6,424 nt of DNA, taken from a virus. Taxonomy: Duplodnaviria; Heunggongvirae; Uroviricota; Caudoviricetes. Below the pieces are notes generated by a model. The model did not search any database, was not told where the DNA came from, and saw only the letters and a list, made by a program, of their open reading frames with translations. The DNA lies in the IMG/VR virus record IMGVR_UViG_2671180366_000012, one strand, 5' to 3'. Within the stretch, counting starts at the first letter, position 1, and the number at the start of each line of letters is the position of its first letter. Shown piece after piece: positions 1 through 6,424 of the stretch. The translations under genes and the position numbers were made by a program.

Positions 1-29
1 AAGTTGGAGTCATTACCCTGGAGCATTTG

Positions 30-2291
30 ATGATCAAGTTATCTGAAAAAGGCGTGTTTCTCGCCAGTAATAACGAAATAATTGCCGAAGAACATTTCAC
101 CGGCGAAATTAAAAAAGAAGAAGCCAAAAAAGGCACTATTGCCTGGTCTATTCTCTCTTCGCATAATACGTCCGGAAATATGGATAAACTTAAAATTAAG
201 TTTGATTCATTAGCCTCTCACGATATTACCTTTGTTGGTATTGTACAGACCGCTAAAGCGTCCGGTATGGAACGTTTCCCGCTGCCGTATGTGCTGACCA
301 ACTGCCATAACTCACTCTGCGCCGTCGGCGGCACTATTAACGGTGATGACCATGTTTTTGGTTTATCGGCGGCCCAGCGTTATGGCGGTATTTTTGTGCC
401 TCCGCATATTGCGGTCATCCATCAATATATGCGTGAGATGATGGCAGGCGGCGGCAAAATGATCCTCGGGTCAGACAGCCACACCCGTTACGGTGCATTA
501 GGGACAATGGCAGTCGGTGAGGGCGGCGGTGAGTTGGTAAAACAGCTGCTTAATGACACCTGGGATATCGACTATCCGGGCGTGGTTGCGGTGCATCTGA
601 CCGGAAAACCTGCGCCGTATGTGGGGCCACAGGATGTGGCGCTGGCTATCATTGGCGCGGTGTTCAAAAACGGTTACGTCAAAAACAAAGTCATGGAGTT
701 CGTTGGACCGGGCGTTAGCGCGCTCTCTACCGATTTCCGTAACAGCGTTGACGTGATGACCACTGAAACGACCTGTTTAAGTTCTGTCTGGCAAACCGAT
801 GAAGAAGTCCATAACTGGCTGGCGCTGCACGGTCGCGGCCAGGATTACTGCCAGCTTAACCCTCAACCGATGGCGTACTACGATGGCTGCATCAGCGTTG
901 ATTTAAGCGCCATCAAACCAATGATTGCGCTGCCGTTCCACCCGAGCAACGTGTATGAAATCGACACACTGAACCAGAACCTGACCGACATTCTGCGTGA
1001 GATTGAAATTGAGTCCGAACGCGTGGCGCACGGTAAAGCCAAACTCTCGCTGCTGGATAAAGTGGAAAATGGTCGCCTGAAAGTGCAGCAGGGGATTATC
1101 GCGGGCTGTTCTGGCGGTAACTACGAAAACGTCATCGCGGCGGCGAATGCACTGCGCGGTCAATCCTGTGGCAATGACACCTTCTCGCTGGCAGTTTACC
1201 CGTCATCACAGCCGGTGTTTATGGATCTCGCCAAAAAAGGTGTGGTAGCAGATTTGATTGGCGCAGGCGCAATCATCAGAACCGCGTTCTGCGGCCCATG
1301 CTTTGGCGCGGGCGATACGCCAATCAACAACGGTTTGAGTATTCGCCACACCACGCGTAACTTCCCGAACCGCGAAGGCTCTAAGCCAGCTAATGGGCAG
1401 ATGTCAGCGGTGGCGTTGATGGACGCTCGTTCTATCGCTGCGACTGCGGCAAACGGTGGCTATTTAACCTCTGCCAGCGAACTTGATTGCTGGGACAACG
1501 TGCCGGAGTACGCCTTCGATGTAACGCCGTATAAAAACCGTGTTTATCAGGGCTTTGTGAAAGGGGCAACTCAGCAACCGCTGATTTACGGGCCGAACAT
1601 TAAAGACTGGCCGGAATTGGGTGCGCTGACTGACAATATCGTCCTGAAAGTGTGCTCGAAGATCCTCGACGAAGTGACCACCACCGACGAACTGATTCCT
1701 TCCGGTGAAACCTCTTCTTATCGTTCAAATCCGATTGGTCTGGCGGAGTTTACCCTGTCTCGCCGCGATCCCGGTTATGTTAGCAGAAGTAAAGCGACTG
1801 CTGAGCTGGAAAATCAGCGTCTGGCGGGGAATGTCAGCGAGCTGACAGAGGTGTTTGCGCGCATTAAGCAGATTGCTGGTCAGGAGCATATTGATCCGCT
1901 GCAAACTGAAATTGGCAGCATGGTCTATGCGGTGAAACCAGGCGATGGTTCTGCGCGTGAACAGGCGGCGAGCTGCCAGCGTGTGATTGGCGGTCTGGCG
2001 AATATTGCCGAGGAGTACGCGACTAAACGCTATCGTTCTAACGTCATCAACTGGGGGATGTTACCGCTGCAAATGGCGGAAGTACCAACCTTTGAAGTGG
2101 GGGATTACATTTACATCCCTAGCATTAAAGCGGCGCTGGATAATCCGGGTACGACGTTTAAAGGTTATGTGATCCATGAAGATGCGCCGGTAACGGAAAT
2201 TACGCTCTATATGGAAAGTCTGACTGCTGAAGAGCGCGAGATTATCAAGGCGGGTAGTTTGATTAACTTCAATAAAAACCGTCAGATGTAA
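30..2291 (+). CDS. ybhJ: Aconitase-family putative hydratase (YbhJ-like), about 753 aa
   Basis: Long uninterrupted ORF; translation matches what I recall of E. coli YbhJ. The ORF track starts at TTG 27, but ATG at 30 sits 6 nt after GGAG (20..23), so ATG 30 is the likelier start. Stop TAA at 2289..2291. Position next to ybhC and the lambda att site matches the K-12 gene order. Confidence 0.88.
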
Positions 2292-2524: not shown

Positions 2525-3808
2525 TTACTTCTTCGCCTCTGCAACCACTTTACTACCCACGCCGCGGTTATTGTATTCCCACATGCGGTTGTAGTTAGTG
2601 TCATTCAGATTGCGCTGTATTTCGTCGTTATCATCTACGCTGCCGGTATTACCCGCAAACGGACGATTAGAGATCACCGCATCGGCCCACGGTTTAGCCG
2701 TGTTAAAACCTTCGTTGATGGCGCTATCACGGATCACCACCTGACCGTTGGTATTGGCATCAACATCCAGCGAGCGGCCCAGTTGCGCCACACCATCACC
2801 GAAAGCATTGAAACGGCTGTTTACGGCGAGGAAACCGTAGTAAATGTTGGACAGCGTAGCCGGTGCAAACACATACGCTTCTTGCTGAGTACGTGAGTTC
2901 ACCACGCGGAATTCGGTGTTATCGAACACCACTGCGCCGCGACCAGAAACGATATCCACATCCCCTTCAATGTAGCTGTTGGTCACCAGCGTACGCGGCT
3001 GACGATTCGTTTCCAGACGGTTCTGCACACCGCTGTTGGTGACAAAGAAGGTGTTCTGACGACCGAGAATGTTAACGTTGTTAATCTGTACCTGGTCACC
3101 ATCAGTACGCAGTGCCACCGCCGGATGGTTACCTGCATCTACGCTATCGCCCAGCGTGTTTTCGATGGTCAGATTTTGCAGTTGCAGGCCATTGTTTTGT
3201 GACCAGAAGACCGCAGAGCAGAGAACACCGATACTGTCGCTGCGTTTGCTCTGGCAGCTATCGTACATATACCACGCTGGTTTACCTGGCATATATTTGC
3301 CGCGCGGGTTGACGTCGTGACGCCAGTCGGCAGGGCTCATGCCACCATCAAGGGAAAGCCCAATCTTCACATCAATCGGTTTTTCACCTGTACCGTACAG
3401 AGTAATTCCACCCGGAGCGGCAGGGACATATACCGTTCCCTGATACTCACCAGGCATCACGGCAATATACTGGCGCTTGTTGGTACGCTTGATAATTGCC
3501 GCATCTACCGCCGCCTGAATCGTGGTATGCGTTACACCTTGAGTGCCCGCCGGGCCGACAACAAAGTCAGGTTGCGCAGGCAGGGTAATCGGGGAAGGAT
3601 TCCACGCTGCAGCACCTGGTGTCAGGGATGCAAAATAGTGTTGAGCATCGAAATTCTGCGCTTCTTTTGCCGACAGAATCGGGCGAGAAGAGGTACCAGG
3701 CGCGGTTTGATCAGAAGGACGTTGATCGGGCGGGGTTGAGCTACAGGCGGTCAGCGTCACGCCAAAAGCCAATGCCAGCGCCAGACGGGAAACTGAAAAT
3801 GTGTTCAC
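2525..3808 (-). CDS. ybhC: Outer-membrane lipoprotein YbhC (pectin methylesterase-like fold; annotated as acyl-CoA thioesterase), 427 aa
   Basis: ORF on the - strand; N-terminus MNTFSVSRLALALAFGVTLTACSS is a lipoprotein signal peptide with lipobox LTAC. Start is GTG (complement of 3806..3808) with GGAG 6 nt upstream on the - strand. Stop TAA is complement of 2525..2527. Translation matches what I recall of E. coli YbhC. Confidence 0.88.
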   Translation of the reverse strand: MNTFSVSRLALALAFGVTLTACSSTPPDQRPSDQTAPGTSSRPILSAKEAQNFDAQHYFASLTPGAAAWNPSPITLPAQPDFVVGPAGTQGVTHTTIQAAVDAAIIKRTNKRQYIAVMPGEYQGTVYVPAAPGGITLYGTGEKPIDVKIGLSLDGGMSPADWRHDVNPRGKYMPGKPAWYMYDSCQSKRSDSIGVLCSAVFWSQNNGLQLQNLTIENTLGDSVDAGNHPAVALRTDGDQVQINNVNILGRQNTFFVTNSGVQNRLETNRQPRTLVTNSYIEGDVDIVSGRGAVVFDNTEFRVVNSRTQQEAYVFAPATLSNIYYGFLAVNSRFNAFGDGVAQLGRSLDVDANTNGQVVIRDSAINEGFNTAKPWADAVISNRPFAGNTGSVDDNDEIQRNLNDTNYNRMWEYNNRGVGSKVVAEAKK

Positions 3809-3869: not shown

Positions 3870-3950
3870 GTTGGCATTATAAAAAAGCATTGCTTATCAA
3901 TTTGTTGCAACGAACAGGTCACTATCAGTCAAAATAAAATCATTATTTGA
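3870..3950. promoter_or_regulatory. P' arm of attL: IHF H' site (3895..3907, tATCAAtttgTTG) and three tandem Int arm-type sites (about 3915..3947)
   Basis: IHF consensus WATCAANNNNTTR is matched at 3895..3907. Arm-type-like repeats caggtcactat / cagtcaaaat / aaatcattat lie at 3915..3947 and overlap the 3' end of int, as in lambda. Confidence 0.65.
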
Positions 3951-5013
3951 TTTCAATTTTGTCCCACTCCCTGCCTCTGTCATCACGATACTGTGATGCC
4001 ATGGTGTCCGACTTATGCCCGAGAAGATGTTGAGCAAACTTATCGCTTATCTGCTTCTCATAGAGTCTTGCAGACAAACTGCGCAACTCGTGAAAGGTAG
4101 GCGGATCCCCTTCGAAGGAAAGACCTGATGCTTTTCGTGCGCGCATAAAATACCTTGATACTGTGCCGGATGAAAGCGGTTCGCGACGAGTAGATGCAAT
4201 TATGGTTTCTCCGCCAAGAATCTCTTTGCATTTATCAAGTGTTTCCTTCATTGATATTCCGAGAGCATCAACATGCAATACTGTTGGGATGGCAATTTTT
4301 ACGCCTGTTTTGCTTTGCTCGACATAAAGATATCCATCTACGATATCAGACCACTTCATTTCGCATAAATCACCAACTCGTTGCCCGGTAACAACAGCCA
4401 GTTCCATTGCAAGTCTGAGCCAACATGGTGATGATTCTGCTGCTTGATAAATTTTCAGGTATTCGTCAGCCGTAAGTCTTGATCTCCTTACCTCTGATTT
4501 TGCTGCGCGAGTGGCAGCGACAGGGTTTGTTGTTATATGGCCTTCAGCTATTGCCTCTCGGAATGCATCGCTCAGTGTTGATCTGATTAACTTGGCTGAC
4601 GCCGCCTTGCCCTCGTCTATGTATCCATTGAGCATTGCCGCAATTTCTTTTGTGGTGATGTCTTCAAGTGGAGCATCAGGCAGACCCCTCCTTATTGCTT
4701 TAATTTTGCTCATGTAATTTATGAGTGTCTTCTGCTTGATTCCTCTGCTGGCCAGGATTTTTTCGTAGCGATCAAGCCATGAATGTAACGTAACGGAATT
4801 ATCACTGTTGATTCTCGCTGTCAGAGGCTTGTGTTTGTGTCCTGAAAATAACTCAATGTTGGCCTGTATAGCTTCAGTGATTGCGATTCGCCTGTCTCTG
4901 CCTAATCCAAACTCTTTACCCGTCCTTGGGTCCCTGTAGCAGTAATATCCATTGTTTCTTATATAAAGGTTAGGGGGTAAATCCCGGCGCTCATGACTTC
5001 GCCTTCTTCCCAT
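3943..5013 (-). CDS. int: Tyrosine recombinase, lambda integrase Int, 356 aa
   Basis: Full-length ORF on the - strand. Translation matches lambda Int as I recall it, including the C-terminal ...HLLGHKSDTMASQYRDDRGREWDKIEIK with the catalytic Tyr 15 residues from the end. An intact BamHI site (ggatcc, 4113..4118) lies inside the gene. Start ATG is complement of 5011..5013. Confidence 0.96.
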   Translation of the reverse strand: MGRRRSHERRDLPPNLYIRNNGYYCYRDPRTGKEFGLGRDRRIAITEAIQANIELFSGHKHKPLTARINSDNSVTLHSWLDRYEKILASRGIKQKTLINYMSKIKAIRRGLPDAPLEDITTKEIAAMLNGYIDEGKAASAKLIRSTLSDAFREAIAEGHITTNPVAATRAAKSEVRRSRLTADEYLKIYQAAESSPCWLRLAMELAVVTGQRVGDLCEMKWSDIVDGYLYVEQSKTGVKIAIPTVLHVDALGISMKETLDKCKEILGGETIIASTRREPLSSGTVSRYFMRARKASGLSFEGDPPTFHELRSLSARLYEKQISDKFAQHLLGHKSDTMASQYRDDRGREWDKIEIK

Positions 5014-5209
5014 TTCTGATCCTCTTCAAAAGGCTACCTGTTACTGGTCGATTTAAGTCAACCTTTACCGCTGATTCGTGGAACAGATACTCTCTTCCAT
5101 CCTTAACCGGAGGAGGGAATATCCTGCACTCGCGTACCCATCGACGAACTGTTTCAAGGCTTCTTGGGCGTCGCTGGCGTGCGTTCCACTCCTGAAGTGT
5201 CAAGTACAT
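4991..5209 (-). CDS. xis: Excisionase Xis, 72 aa
   Basis: ORF MYLTLQEWNARQRRPRSLETVRRWVRECRIFPPPVKDGREYLFHESAVKVDLNRPVTGSLLKRIRNGKKAKS matches lambda Xis. Its 3' end overlaps the int start by 23 nt (4991..5013), as in lambda. Confidence 0.95.
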   Translation of the reverse strand: MYLTLQEWNARQRRPRSLETVRRWVRECRIFPPPVKDGREYLFHESAVKVDLNRPVTGSLLKRIRNGKKAKS

Positions 5210-5236: not shown

Positions 5237-5257
5237 AAAAAACCGCCATCAGGCGGC
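5237..5257 (-). terminator. Short GC hairpin followed by a U-run on the - strand (terminator-like), overlapping the orf55 stop codon
   Basis: The - strand reads GCCGCC-UGAU-GGCGG-UUUUUU: a 5-6 bp stem from 5243..5247 pairing with 5252..5256, followed by six T (complement of A 5237..5242). The stem is short, so termination efficiency is uncertain. Confidence 0.35.
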
Positions 5258-5416
5258 TTGGTGTTCTTTCAGTTCTTCAATTCGAATATTGGTTACGTCT
5301 GCATGTGCTATCTGCGCCCATATCATCCAGTGGTTATAACAGTCGTTGATGTTCTCTGCTTCGATAACCCTGTTGAATGGCTCTCCATTCCATTCACCTG
5401 TGACTCGGAAGTGCAT
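5249..5416 (-). CDS. Small conserved lambda ORF (55 aa) between xis and the accessory region
   Basis: Not in the supplied track (below its length cutoff). The - strand reads ATG...TGA giving MHFRVTGEWNGEPFNRVIEAENINDCYNHWMIWAQIAHADVTNIRIEELKEHQAA. GGAG lies 7 nt upstream of the ATG. Same size and position as the 55-codon ORF I recall after xis in lambda. Confidence 0.65.
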   Translation of the reverse strand: MHFRVTGEWNGEPFNRVIEAENINDCYNHWMIWAQIAHADVTNIRIEELKEHQAA

Positions 5417-5427
5417 TTATCATCTCC

Positions 5428-5454
5428 ATAAAACAAAACTCGCCGTAGCGAGTT
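5428..5454 (-). terminator. Rho-independent terminator-like hairpin for leftward transcription, downstream of the 142-aa gene
   Basis: Perfect 7-bp stem aactcgc (5437..5443) / gcgagtt (5448..5454) with 4-nt loop cgta. On the - strand it is followed by UUUUGUUUU (complement of 5428..5436). Confidence 0.45.
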
Positions 5455-5499
5455 CAGATATAATTTCCACCAAAGGCAGTAGTTGCTTGATGCTAAGAA

Positions 5500-5928
5500 T
5501 TATTCAATATCTATTCCTGTAATATCTTTTATCTTTTTCCTTGCAAAGCCTTTTGCTAGTGATTTTGAAACACTCATAAGTGTACTAATTCCCTCATCCT
5601 TAAAGTTTGTTTTTATAGCTTGCCAGACATCCTTTTGACGTAAGTCAGCAATAAAATCATGCCCTCTTGCTGTCAACCTCAGTGGTACTTCGATCCAACT
5701 ATATCCAACACCTTCCCCTAACGCTTTGGACAATATATGACCGAACCCAGGTTTTCCATCAACCCTGACTATTAATTCGTAGTCACATAATAATCGCATA
5801 TGGAAAATAAAATCTTGGTCATATCTATTAAAGCCATTATCCTCTAGTTCACTAAGCATCGTGTCAGGGCCACGAGTTTTTTCGAATGCGATAAGTAGAT
5901 CTTTTAGATATTGCTGGTCTAATTTCAT
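5500..5928 (-). CDS. Hypothetical protein, 142 aa, AT-rich moron-like gene in the prophage accessory region
   Basis: ORF with strong RBS: the - strand reads GGAGG-cggca-ATG. Composition is conspicuously AT-rich compared with flanking genes. No signal peptide, transmembrane segment or family motif that I recognise. Confidence 0.75.
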   Translation of the reverse strand: MKLDQQYLKDLLIAFEKTRGPDTMLSELEDNGFNRYDQDFIFHMRLLCDYELIVRVDGKPGFGHILSKALGEGVGYSWIEVPLRLTARGHDFIADLRQKDVWQAIKTNFKDEGISTLMSVSKSLAKGFARKKIKDITGIDIE

Positions 5929-5938
5929 TGCCGCCTCC

Positions 5939-5950
5939 GTGACATGTCAC
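5939..5950. promoter_or_regulatory. 12-bp perfect palindrome GTGACATGTCAC between a -10-like TATAAA and the RBS of the 142-aa gene (candidate operator or 5' UTR hairpin)
   Basis: Perfect dyad at 5939..5950 in the 28-bp intergenic spacer. On the - strand the order is TATAAA (complement of 5956..5961), 5 nt, palindrome, GGAGG, ATG. No good -35 hexamer is apparent. Confidence 0.3.
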
Positions 5951-5956
5951 AGAGAT

Positions 5957-6295
5957 TTATATCATTAATTTTGTTTCGTGCCAGCCTTTGGTCACCCAGC
6001 ATTGTGAGTCACCATTACACGGGCATGAATTAACAGGAACTCTCTCGCCGCACTTACCGCACCGTTTTCTGCTGATCGATTTTATACGCCAGCGCACACG
6101 TGCATCATCCTGGCGGCTCAGTAACGCGATGTACTCACCAAACTCGCAAGGCGCACGCCTGAAGCGACGCGTGGCACAGTTACGCTCCAGCATTTCAATT
6201 TCCTGAGCATCAAGTACAAGCTCCAGCTTACGCATACCGGATGATGCTTGCTTGGCTCTCTGATCGGCTTTGTGCTCTGTTGCTGATTTAGCCAT
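5957..6295 (-). CDS. Hypothetical protein, 112 aa, with C-terminal cysteine cluster (possible zinc ribbon)
   Basis: ORF with AGGA 8 nt upstream of the ATG on the - strand. C-terminal region RKRCGKCGERVPVNSCPCNGDSQCW contains CxxC, CxC and a further Cys; the N-terminal half is basic and predicted helical by eye. Composition is near 50% GC, unlike the downstream 142-aa gene. Confidence 0.7.
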   Translation of the reverse strand: MAKSATEHKADQRAKQASSGMRKLELVLDAQEIEMLERNCATRRFRRAPCEFGEYIALLSRQDDARVRWRIKSISRKRCGKCGERVPVNSCPCNGDSQCWVTKGWHETKLMI

Positions 6296-6424
6296 TCTGC
6301 TTTTCCTGCATCAGGAGAAAGACAATCATGGCGGTGATGCTGCCAACTTACTGATTTAGTGTATGATGGTGTTTTTGAGGGGCTCCAGTGGCTTCCACCT
6401 TTCTCTTGTACACATATCCCAGCC

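Follow-up and report, generated by a model that had tools for sequence, protein, structure and literature searches.

A gene for a small protein with a dense cluster of cysteines, found at the left end of a lambdoid prophage, raises the question of what kind of protein it encodes and what that protein might act upon. The window, by which we mean the whole stretch of 6424 nt analysed here (IMG/VR record IMGVR_UViG_2671180366_000012), consists of E. coli chromosome and then, at the lambda attachment site, the left end of a lambdoid prophage. The genes ybhJ (27–2291, plus strand) and ybhC (2525–3808, minus strand) are followed by int (3943–5013), xis (4991–5209), an ORF of 55 aa (orf55, 5249–5416), a DUF2513 gene of 142 aa (5500–5928) and the gene for the 112 aa protein (5957–6295), to which the DUF2513 gene lies downstream, all on the minus strand. 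The end of an IS1-family element (6333–6424, plus strand) begins 37 bp upstream of the ATG of the 112 aa gene. Between ybhJ and ybhC, at about 2300–2480, repeated units are accompanied by the same peptide strings in ORFs on both strands and resemble REP/BIME-type elements; Tandem Repeats Finder gave no hits for these repeats.

The window is near-identical to lambda across int, xis and orf55 up to about position 5460, where the homology breaks, and the DUF2513 and 112 aa genes occupy the slot of lambda ea8.5 in the exo-xis region. The breakpoint, at about 5436–5460, is a module boundary in this region. It lies just past a T-run hairpin (5436–5455, minus strand), which in lambda follows ea8.5. 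The DUF2513 protein shows weak similarity to a winged-helix family and had no defence-system match.

The 112 aa ORF starts with an ATG, is preceded at a distance of 8–11 nt by an AGGA-type ribosome-binding site read from the sequence (AGGAAAAG, 6300–6307, minus strand), and encodes 23 lysine and arginine residues versus 14 aspartates and glutamates. Its product, labelled in RefSeq as a hypothetical protein (WP_001129736.1), belongs to the epsilon15 gp49/N15 gp46 family, PHROG 536, and matches the PHROG profile end to end (E 7.3e-48; residues 1–111 versus profile positions 2–114 of 115). The family is small, with 394 homologues of the 112 aa protein, 104 cluster representatives at 50 % identity among 1.8 billion proteins, and members in 55 phage records. 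The copy in the plaque-forming phage Chlobot is 100 % identical to the window protein, and at 70–87 % identity the family provides the last early gene of epsilon15-like podoviruses (epsilon15 gp49, itself 70 % identical, phiV10 and TL-2011b gp20). Genes of ZF40, AH07, P2-like Yersinia phages and Aeromonas phages follow at 31–62 % identity, and N15 gp46 was recognized as a member from the epsilon15 annotation and a tblastn match. Purifying selection acts on the epsilon15-like copies (dN/dS = 0.13).

The preliminary description of this DNA, made from the letters alone, had called the ORF and its cysteine cluster. Both are real: the number of homologues and representatives, the cysteine pattern kept in 158 of 172 family sequences and the dN/dS of the epsilon15-like copies place the gene beyond chance. 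The ORF is a genuine conserved small gene of temperate enterobacterial phages, encoding an accessory protein. No family was assigned when the protein and 35 family members were compared with Pfam, NCBIfam and PADLOC, sequence searches of the PDB with the single protein and with a profile found nothing significant (the best match was TraR at E 0.47), and a literature search for WP_001129736.1 found no match. PHROG 536 is thus already catalogued yet uncharacterized, without a Pfam model or a solved relative.

The fold of the protein was approached by modelling and profile comparison. An AlphaFold2 model built with an alignment (mean pLDDT 90.7) consists of a helix at residues 5–19, an extended segment at 20–29, a helix at 30–43, a long helix at 52–74, a knuckle-like loop at 77–99 and a final helix at 100–108. 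In an hhalign comparison, the family profile aligned to E. coli YbfE with a probability of 93.8 % (E 1.7e-7; residues 8–70, 58 columns). The strand–helix–helix topology that characterizes the ribbon-helix-helix (RHH; CopG/Arc/MetJ) superfamily is present in the model, and the profile similarity is to an accepted RHH protein; the Pfam models RHH_1, RHH_5 and RepB-RCR_reg gave faint matches, each with single members only. On the model and the independent YbfE alignment, we assign the N-terminal two-thirds of the protein to an RHH domain of the YbfE type that carries a basic arm. The predicted arm (residues 5–19; 6239–6283, minus strand) is supported by the model helix, by the alignment (consensus RKxxQRxR, with R13 nearly invariant) and by YbfE residues 37–50. 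The predicted core (residues 20–74; 6074–6238, minus strand) comprises a strand at about 22–28, a helix at 30–43, a five-residue loop insertion and the long helix at 52–74. The N-terminal half had been described as charged and helical-looking, and it can now be given a known fold.

YbfE is a LexA-regulated RHH protein of E. coli of unknown function. It resembles the phage family in its basic arm, its RHH core and the strand motif [RK]x-EL-x-L, but it lacks the cysteine module, and the phage family has the five-residue insertion between the two helices. The 112 aa protein scored 16.8 bits against the YbfE equivalog model (NCBIfam NF008671), whose cut-off is 62 bits. Nucleic-acid binding is likely, and the part that probably reads DNA is the RHH domain, not the cysteine cluster or the adjoining basic stretch. 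The earlier suggestion of a zinc-binding, nucleic-acid-binding factor was largely right in kind, with the qualifications that the DNA-binding part has a known fold and that four of the cysteines count.

The window protein has cysteines at residues 40, 50, 79, 82, 91, 93 and 99. The five clustered residues had been placed in the C-terminal 25 residues of the protein; they occupy a stretch of 21 residues (CGKCGERVPVNSCPCNGDSQC, residues 79–99) that ends 13 residues before the C-terminus, and they are preceded, as had been described, by the basic stretch RWRIKSISRKR (residues 68–78). In an alignment of 35 sequences (25–69 % identity), C79 and C82 are present in every sequence and C99 in nearly all, and when the C-terminal region was re-aligned with 32 sequences, leaving out three aberrant sequences of that set, C79, C82, P87, C91 and C99 were all invariant. 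The invariance of the four cysteines reaches homologues down to about 27 % identity. The pattern C-x2-C-x6-10-C-x7-9-C, with the spacing C-x2-C-x8-C-x7-C in the window protein, was scored in family sequences of at least 95 aa, among which the exceptions are mostly frameshifted, truncated or fused gene calls. By contrast, C93 (of the 'CPC'), C40 and C50 are not conserved; C93 is specific to its lineage, and the position of C50 is occupied by a nearly invariant tyrosine in the family. The five-cysteine cluster proposed as a metal site thus reduces to four. Poor conservation of the cysteines would have counted against such a site, as would membership of a well-known family with non-metal-binding cysteines, and no such family claimed the protein in searches with the 35 members.

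We read the invariant C79, C82, C91 and C99 as marking a structural metal site of the Cys4 type; most likely they hold one zinc ion and stabilize a small knob. This putative Cys4 module spans residues 77–112 (5960–6067, minus strand), as delimited by the alignments and the model, and includes the invariant P87 and the C-terminal helix (100–108). A separate model of residues 50–112 (pLDDT 81) had no significant structural neighbour. Lambda Ea8.5, a hybrid of homeodomain and zinc finger, fills the same exo-xis slot and likewise joins a small fold of DNA-binding type to a zinc module (PMC8614690), but its fold is a homeodomain where the 112 aa protein has the RHH domain, and homology between the two was rejected (hhalign 0.2 %).

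A candidate target for such a protein came from comparing the sequences past the stop codon across gene contexts, which revealed a perfect 12 bp palindrome of the form GTGAC-NN-GTCAC. In the window it reads GTGACATGTCAC (5939–5950), lies 7 bp past the stop codon of the 112 aa gene, as in the lambdoid lineage generally, and abuts the GGAGG ribosome-binding site of the next gene. In epsilon15 and the epsilon15-like phages the palindrome includes the TGA stop, with the centre AT in the epsilon15-like phages. It also includes the stop codon in AH07 (centre CT), in N15 (centre TG) and in a locus whose protein is only about 30 % identical (L091, centre AG), and in ZF40 it lies 3 bp beyond the stop (TGTGACATGTCACA). 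The palindrome is therefore linked to the stop codon in at least seven contexts (lambdoid, epsilon15-like, epsilon15, ZF40, AH07, N15 and L091), which differ in their neighbouring genes and in which protein identity falls to about 30 %. Homology between contexts ends right past the palindrome.

Other arrangements were seen among the remaining loci that were fetched, all with the palindrome within a few kb of the gene. In L094–L097, it lies 3–15 bp 5′ of the family gene; L098 has two palindromes and a Yersinia phage has one; and in L092 and L093 two palindromes, 23 bp apart, lie 2.1 kb 3′ of the gene, resembling the dimer-of-dimers operators of classical RHH regulators. In 34 epsilon15-like loci, a second copy is found 2.2–2.45 kb downstream, past the large terminase gene, which places terS–terL between the two sites. 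The arms of the palindrome are constant, the centre varies between genomes, and all copies within N15, epsilon15, ZF40 and L092 have the same centre. Constant arms with a genome-specific centre are easier to reconcile with a symmetric reader encoded by the phage than with an RNA stem.

The palindrome is far more frequent in the carrier genomes than expected. Whole-genome counts were three each in epsilon15, N15 and ZF40 and two in AH07, versus about 0.04 expected in each, and none of 100 dinucleotide-preserving shuffles reached three. Of the five carrier genomes examined in complete form, four hold two or three copies; the lambdoid phage Chlobot has a single one, adjacent to the gene. When the arms were held fixed and the spacer was varied from 0 to 8 nt across 263 kb, the 2 nt spacer gave 21 matches versus none or one for every other spacer. 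Of 80 loci found through the lambda-type integrase, 10 include the family gene, and each of these has a single site; the other 70, which lack the gene, are free of sites over 797 kb. IMG/VR was also scanned without bias for the 14-mer TGTGACATGTCACA; this returned 120 loci, of which 32 contain the family gene. A literature search for the 12-mer found no paper containing the sequence in the searchable library.

The palindrome thus lies beside the gene or within a few kb of it in most phage lineages examined, and this tight linkage of the family gene to a matS-like 12 bp palindrome is what is new here. The linkage is strong, but it is not exclusive, as one complete phage without the gene carries the palindrome twice.

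We also considered where the sites fall relative to genes. Of 193 distinct site contexts, a set that includes chance matches from the 14-mer scan and was scored by crude ORF calling, 20 % overlap the 3′ end of an ORF (3.4 % of random positions), 15 % lie between convergent ORFs (2.6 %) and only 34 % lie inside ORFs (77.5 %). Divergent, promoter-type regions were not enriched in the same set (3.1 % versus 2.1 %), so a role as classical operators is not supported. In epsilon15, two of the three sites have annotated terminators within 3–22 bp downstream. The sites look like elements of transcription-unit ends rather than classical operators. With Arc, Mnt, CopG, omega and ParG the family shares the RHH fold and an expected dimeric reading of DNA, but it adds the Cys4 module, and its sites lie at gene 3′ ends or between convergent genes.

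A search for promoter or operator repeats upstream of the gene in Chlobot turned up a terminator hairpin and a umuD-like remnant but no convincing candidate. This decayed umuD-like frame lies directly upstream of the 112 aa gene and runs into it in another frame (Chlobot 17009–17326, equivalent to L001 4861–5178; also L027 3723–4178); it has lost the catalytic serine motif and is truncated at UmuD residue 103. In the GenBank record of Chlobot, the frame is labelled 'UmuD-like protein' and the 112 aa gene is cut to a 46 aa 'transcriptional regulator', which looks like a mis-annotation.

The half-sites of the palindrome recall a host element. E. coli matS (GTGACATTGTCAC, GTGAC-RNY-GTCAC, 13 bp) is bound by the RHH-containing protein MatP, has its outer four base pairs in common with the SlmA site, and is strictly avoided by prophages (PMC3116907, PMC3603311, PMC8669397). 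The matS site has a 3 nt centre whereas the 12 bp phage site has a 2 nt centre, and by its letters the phage palindrome corresponds to matS minus one central base. At the 3 nt spacing of matS, 263 kb of carrier genomes gave no match. MatP, the organizer of the Ter macrodomain, is built from a four-helix bundle and a coiled coil; the AlphaFold2 model of the 112 aa protein shows neither, and identity with MatP was rejected (hhalign 0.2 %, no sequence similarity). No copy of the palindrome lies near ybfE. The SopB centromeres of N15 are GTGCGACCnnGGTCGCAC (PMC7205306) and so do not account for the palindrome. Readings as a LexA box or a CRP site were rejected by inspection against the consensus spacings of these sites.

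The genes around the family differ from one phage type to another. In 41 IMG/VR loci of the epsilon15 type, the small terminase gene follows directly 3′ of the family gene, and in 35 loci of the lambdoid type the DUF2513 gene comes after it and a gene for a 204 aa secreted protein before it. The family gene comes after DNA methyltransferases in ZF40, after an HNH endonuclease and just before xis in AH07, after a P2-type gpA in Yersinia phages, and within the block after Q in N15; distant members lie near integrases, holins or terminases. Some of these regions carry other accessory genes. In the Yersinia phage vB_YenM_42.18 (L005 4642–7260), an 872 aa protein with a PHP-like N-terminus, annotated 'Smc', is encoded downstream of the family gene and may be defence-type cargo at a P2 hotspot. 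Genes with the Acb2/Tad1 hairpin domain of the anti-CBASS/anti-Thoeris family share accessory regions with distant family members (L091 1667–2050; L094 2506–2760 and 4904–5158).

We hypothesize, at roughly even confidence, that the 112 aa protein is a dimeric RHH–Cys4 protein whose site is GTGAC-NN-GTCAC and that it regulates at transcription-unit ends or bridges sites. Binding of the palindrome by the protein is our leading hypothesis, and the symmetry of the candidate site is consistent with a dimeric reader. In the mechanism that we propose, the basic arm and RHH domain would dimerize and read DNA through a two-stranded β-ribbon, and the Cys4 module would hold zinc and stabilize the knob, which may link dimers. 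The dimer would bind the palindrome beside the gene and, in most of the carrier genomes examined, at a few other places, mainly at transcription-unit ends. Acting there as a roadblock, insulator or repressor, the bound protein could control passage into the following gene or module, or it could bridge distant sites. A general role as late-gene activator is unlikely, given that N15, ZF40, AH07 and Chlobot already have Q-type antiterminators, with the epsilon15-like phages as a possible exception.

Several alternatives to this RHH–Cys4 reader were weighed against the same evidence. That the protein contacts RNA polymerase, as TraR and lambda Orf73 do, rather than binding DNA, strikes us as highly improbable. 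Residues 51–112 gave the weak profile match to TraR reported above (PDB 6n57_M), the order of elements is that of TraR (a long helix, CxxCGxxxP, a cysteine and a C-terminal helix, the cysteine falling 16–18 residues later at the start of that helix, as also in DksA and Orf73), and the exo-xis region is also the home of Orf73 (PMC8614690). However, the CxxC-x17-CxxC spacing of TraR/DksA (PF01258) is absent, as the preliminary description had already recognized, none of the 35 members matched the Pfam model, and hhalign gave only 16.7 % to TraR, so identity with TraR/DksA was rejected. The fourth TraR cysteine is replaced by threonine, an additional central cysteine is conserved, and the acidic N-terminal tip and the ExxRK after the cysteines, hallmarks of TraR/DksA (PMC8614690), are lacking in a protein whose N-terminus is basic. 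The long helix that matches TraR is, moreover, helix B of the RHH domain, and Chlobot has a separate DksA/TraR-like gene. We consider it quite unlikely, too, that the protein is an RHH antitoxin paired with DUF2513, or that the palindrome is an RNA hairpin hiding the DUF2513 ribosome-binding site. DUF2513 is constantly paired with the 112 aa gene, but in the lambdoid lineage only. The downstream gene is different in every other lineage (terS, xis, gp47, NinB and others), and the lack of a conserved protein partner across lineages argues against a toxin–antitoxin pair, as does the absence of any PADLOC or toxin-family match. The window palindrome and its flanks could fold over the DUF2513 ribosome-binding site, but no better than shuffled sequences (z = −1.28); any RNA fold would leave the conserved fifth and eighth bases in its loop, unpaired, and the N15 sites occur in both orientations relative to transcription.

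A more serious alternative, to which we assign a modest probability, accepts the RHH regulator but supposes that the palindrome is read by another host or phage factor, or is a joint of module exchange, with the gene merely adjacent. The phage SaltyDalty, with a complete genome of 36.9 kb, contains two GTGAC-NN-GTCAC palindromes (L305 15420 and 18870) and no family member even at E≤10; one site overlaps the stop of a cro-like gene, the other is inside a Q-like gene, and relatives of SaltyDalty retain both palindromes with varying centres. Similarly, 19 of the 88 loci from the 14-mer scan that have no gene in view carry at least two sites, versus about 0.8 expected. In one gene-less locus, L228, the palindromes at 2532 and 4755 fall in frame within separate ORFs and encode 'CDMSQ' in both. 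From the SaltyDalty pair and the gene-less multi-site loci, it follows that something else can also use or maintain the palindrome sequence. The break of homology directly past the palindrome is what would be expected of a recombination joint, and the palindrome has the same half-sites as matS, to which the host protein MatP binds (PMC3116907, PMC8669397). Against this, the palindrome is within 15 bp of the family gene in eight or more contexts whose neighbouring genes are unrelated; neither a generic joint nor a host site explains this recurrence. The centre is genome-specific in two phages of E. coli (TG in N15, AT in epsilon15-like phages), which would be unexpected of a single host reader. 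The absence of matS spacing and of any site in the 797 kb of lambdoid DNA without the gene also speaks against this alternative.

The copy in the window requires separate consideration. The IS1 element severs the gene from the phage early promoter and upstream transcription unit; its insA is directed away from the 112 aa gene, and is divergent or frameshifted. In strain YJ6, lysis genes (rrrD) come immediately after the IS1, which points to a deletion or rearrangement mediated by IS1; on this evidence the prophage is rearranged or truncated. The window allele departs from the family consensus at five conserved positions (P45F, G46R, Y50C, I60S and G69W), among them the nearly invariant tyrosine. 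Premature stops are present in 18 of 37 lambdoid IMG/VR copies, 17 of them a change from TGT to TGA at codon 40, and the dN/dS of the stop-bearing copies is about 1, counts and ratios that come from loci which are not phylogenetically independent. The codon 40 change (e.g. in L027) sits on several different haplotypes, some copies also having C99Y or G80R, and the downstream palindrome is intact in all 17 copies with it. The window copy is probably poorly expressed or decaying. It may even be a non-functional relic, the unexpressed and decaying remnant of a defective lambdoid prophage whose family might function in active phages, a possibility that we take seriously but lean against. The ORF is intact and identical to that of plaque-forming Chlobot, and intact lambdoid alleles have a dN/dS of 0.29, on few differences. 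The palindrome and the DUF2513 gene are retained at this locus. A relic in the window would concern this copy and not the family, and is compatible with the RHH–Cys4 hypothesis.

Members of the family are common among the temperate phages that infect E. coli, Salmonella, Klebsiella, Pectobacterium, Yersinia and Aeromonas, where they are currently annotated as 'hypothetical' or, without evidence, as 'transcriptional regulator', and at least one phage genome has been deposited with the gene wrongly split. Its link to the 12 bp palindrome offers a testable pair of protein and site in the poorly understood exo-xis and nin-type early or accessory regions. The similarity to matS raises the question of why phages that strictly avoid matS would keep a matS-like site one base shorter. 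By analogy with MatP/matS or ParB/parS, gene and palindrome could form an undescribed site-specific DNA system of phages, bridging or insulating segments via the zinc module, although we think this improbable. Such a system, with host half-sites at a spacing that MatP should not read, might also serve interference with, or evasion of, the host chromosome-organizing machinery (MatP/MukBEF). If the pairing is true, it would define a compact RHH and Cys4 DNA-binding module together with a new cis element for phage annotation, and could explain some of the module boundaries in phage mosaics.
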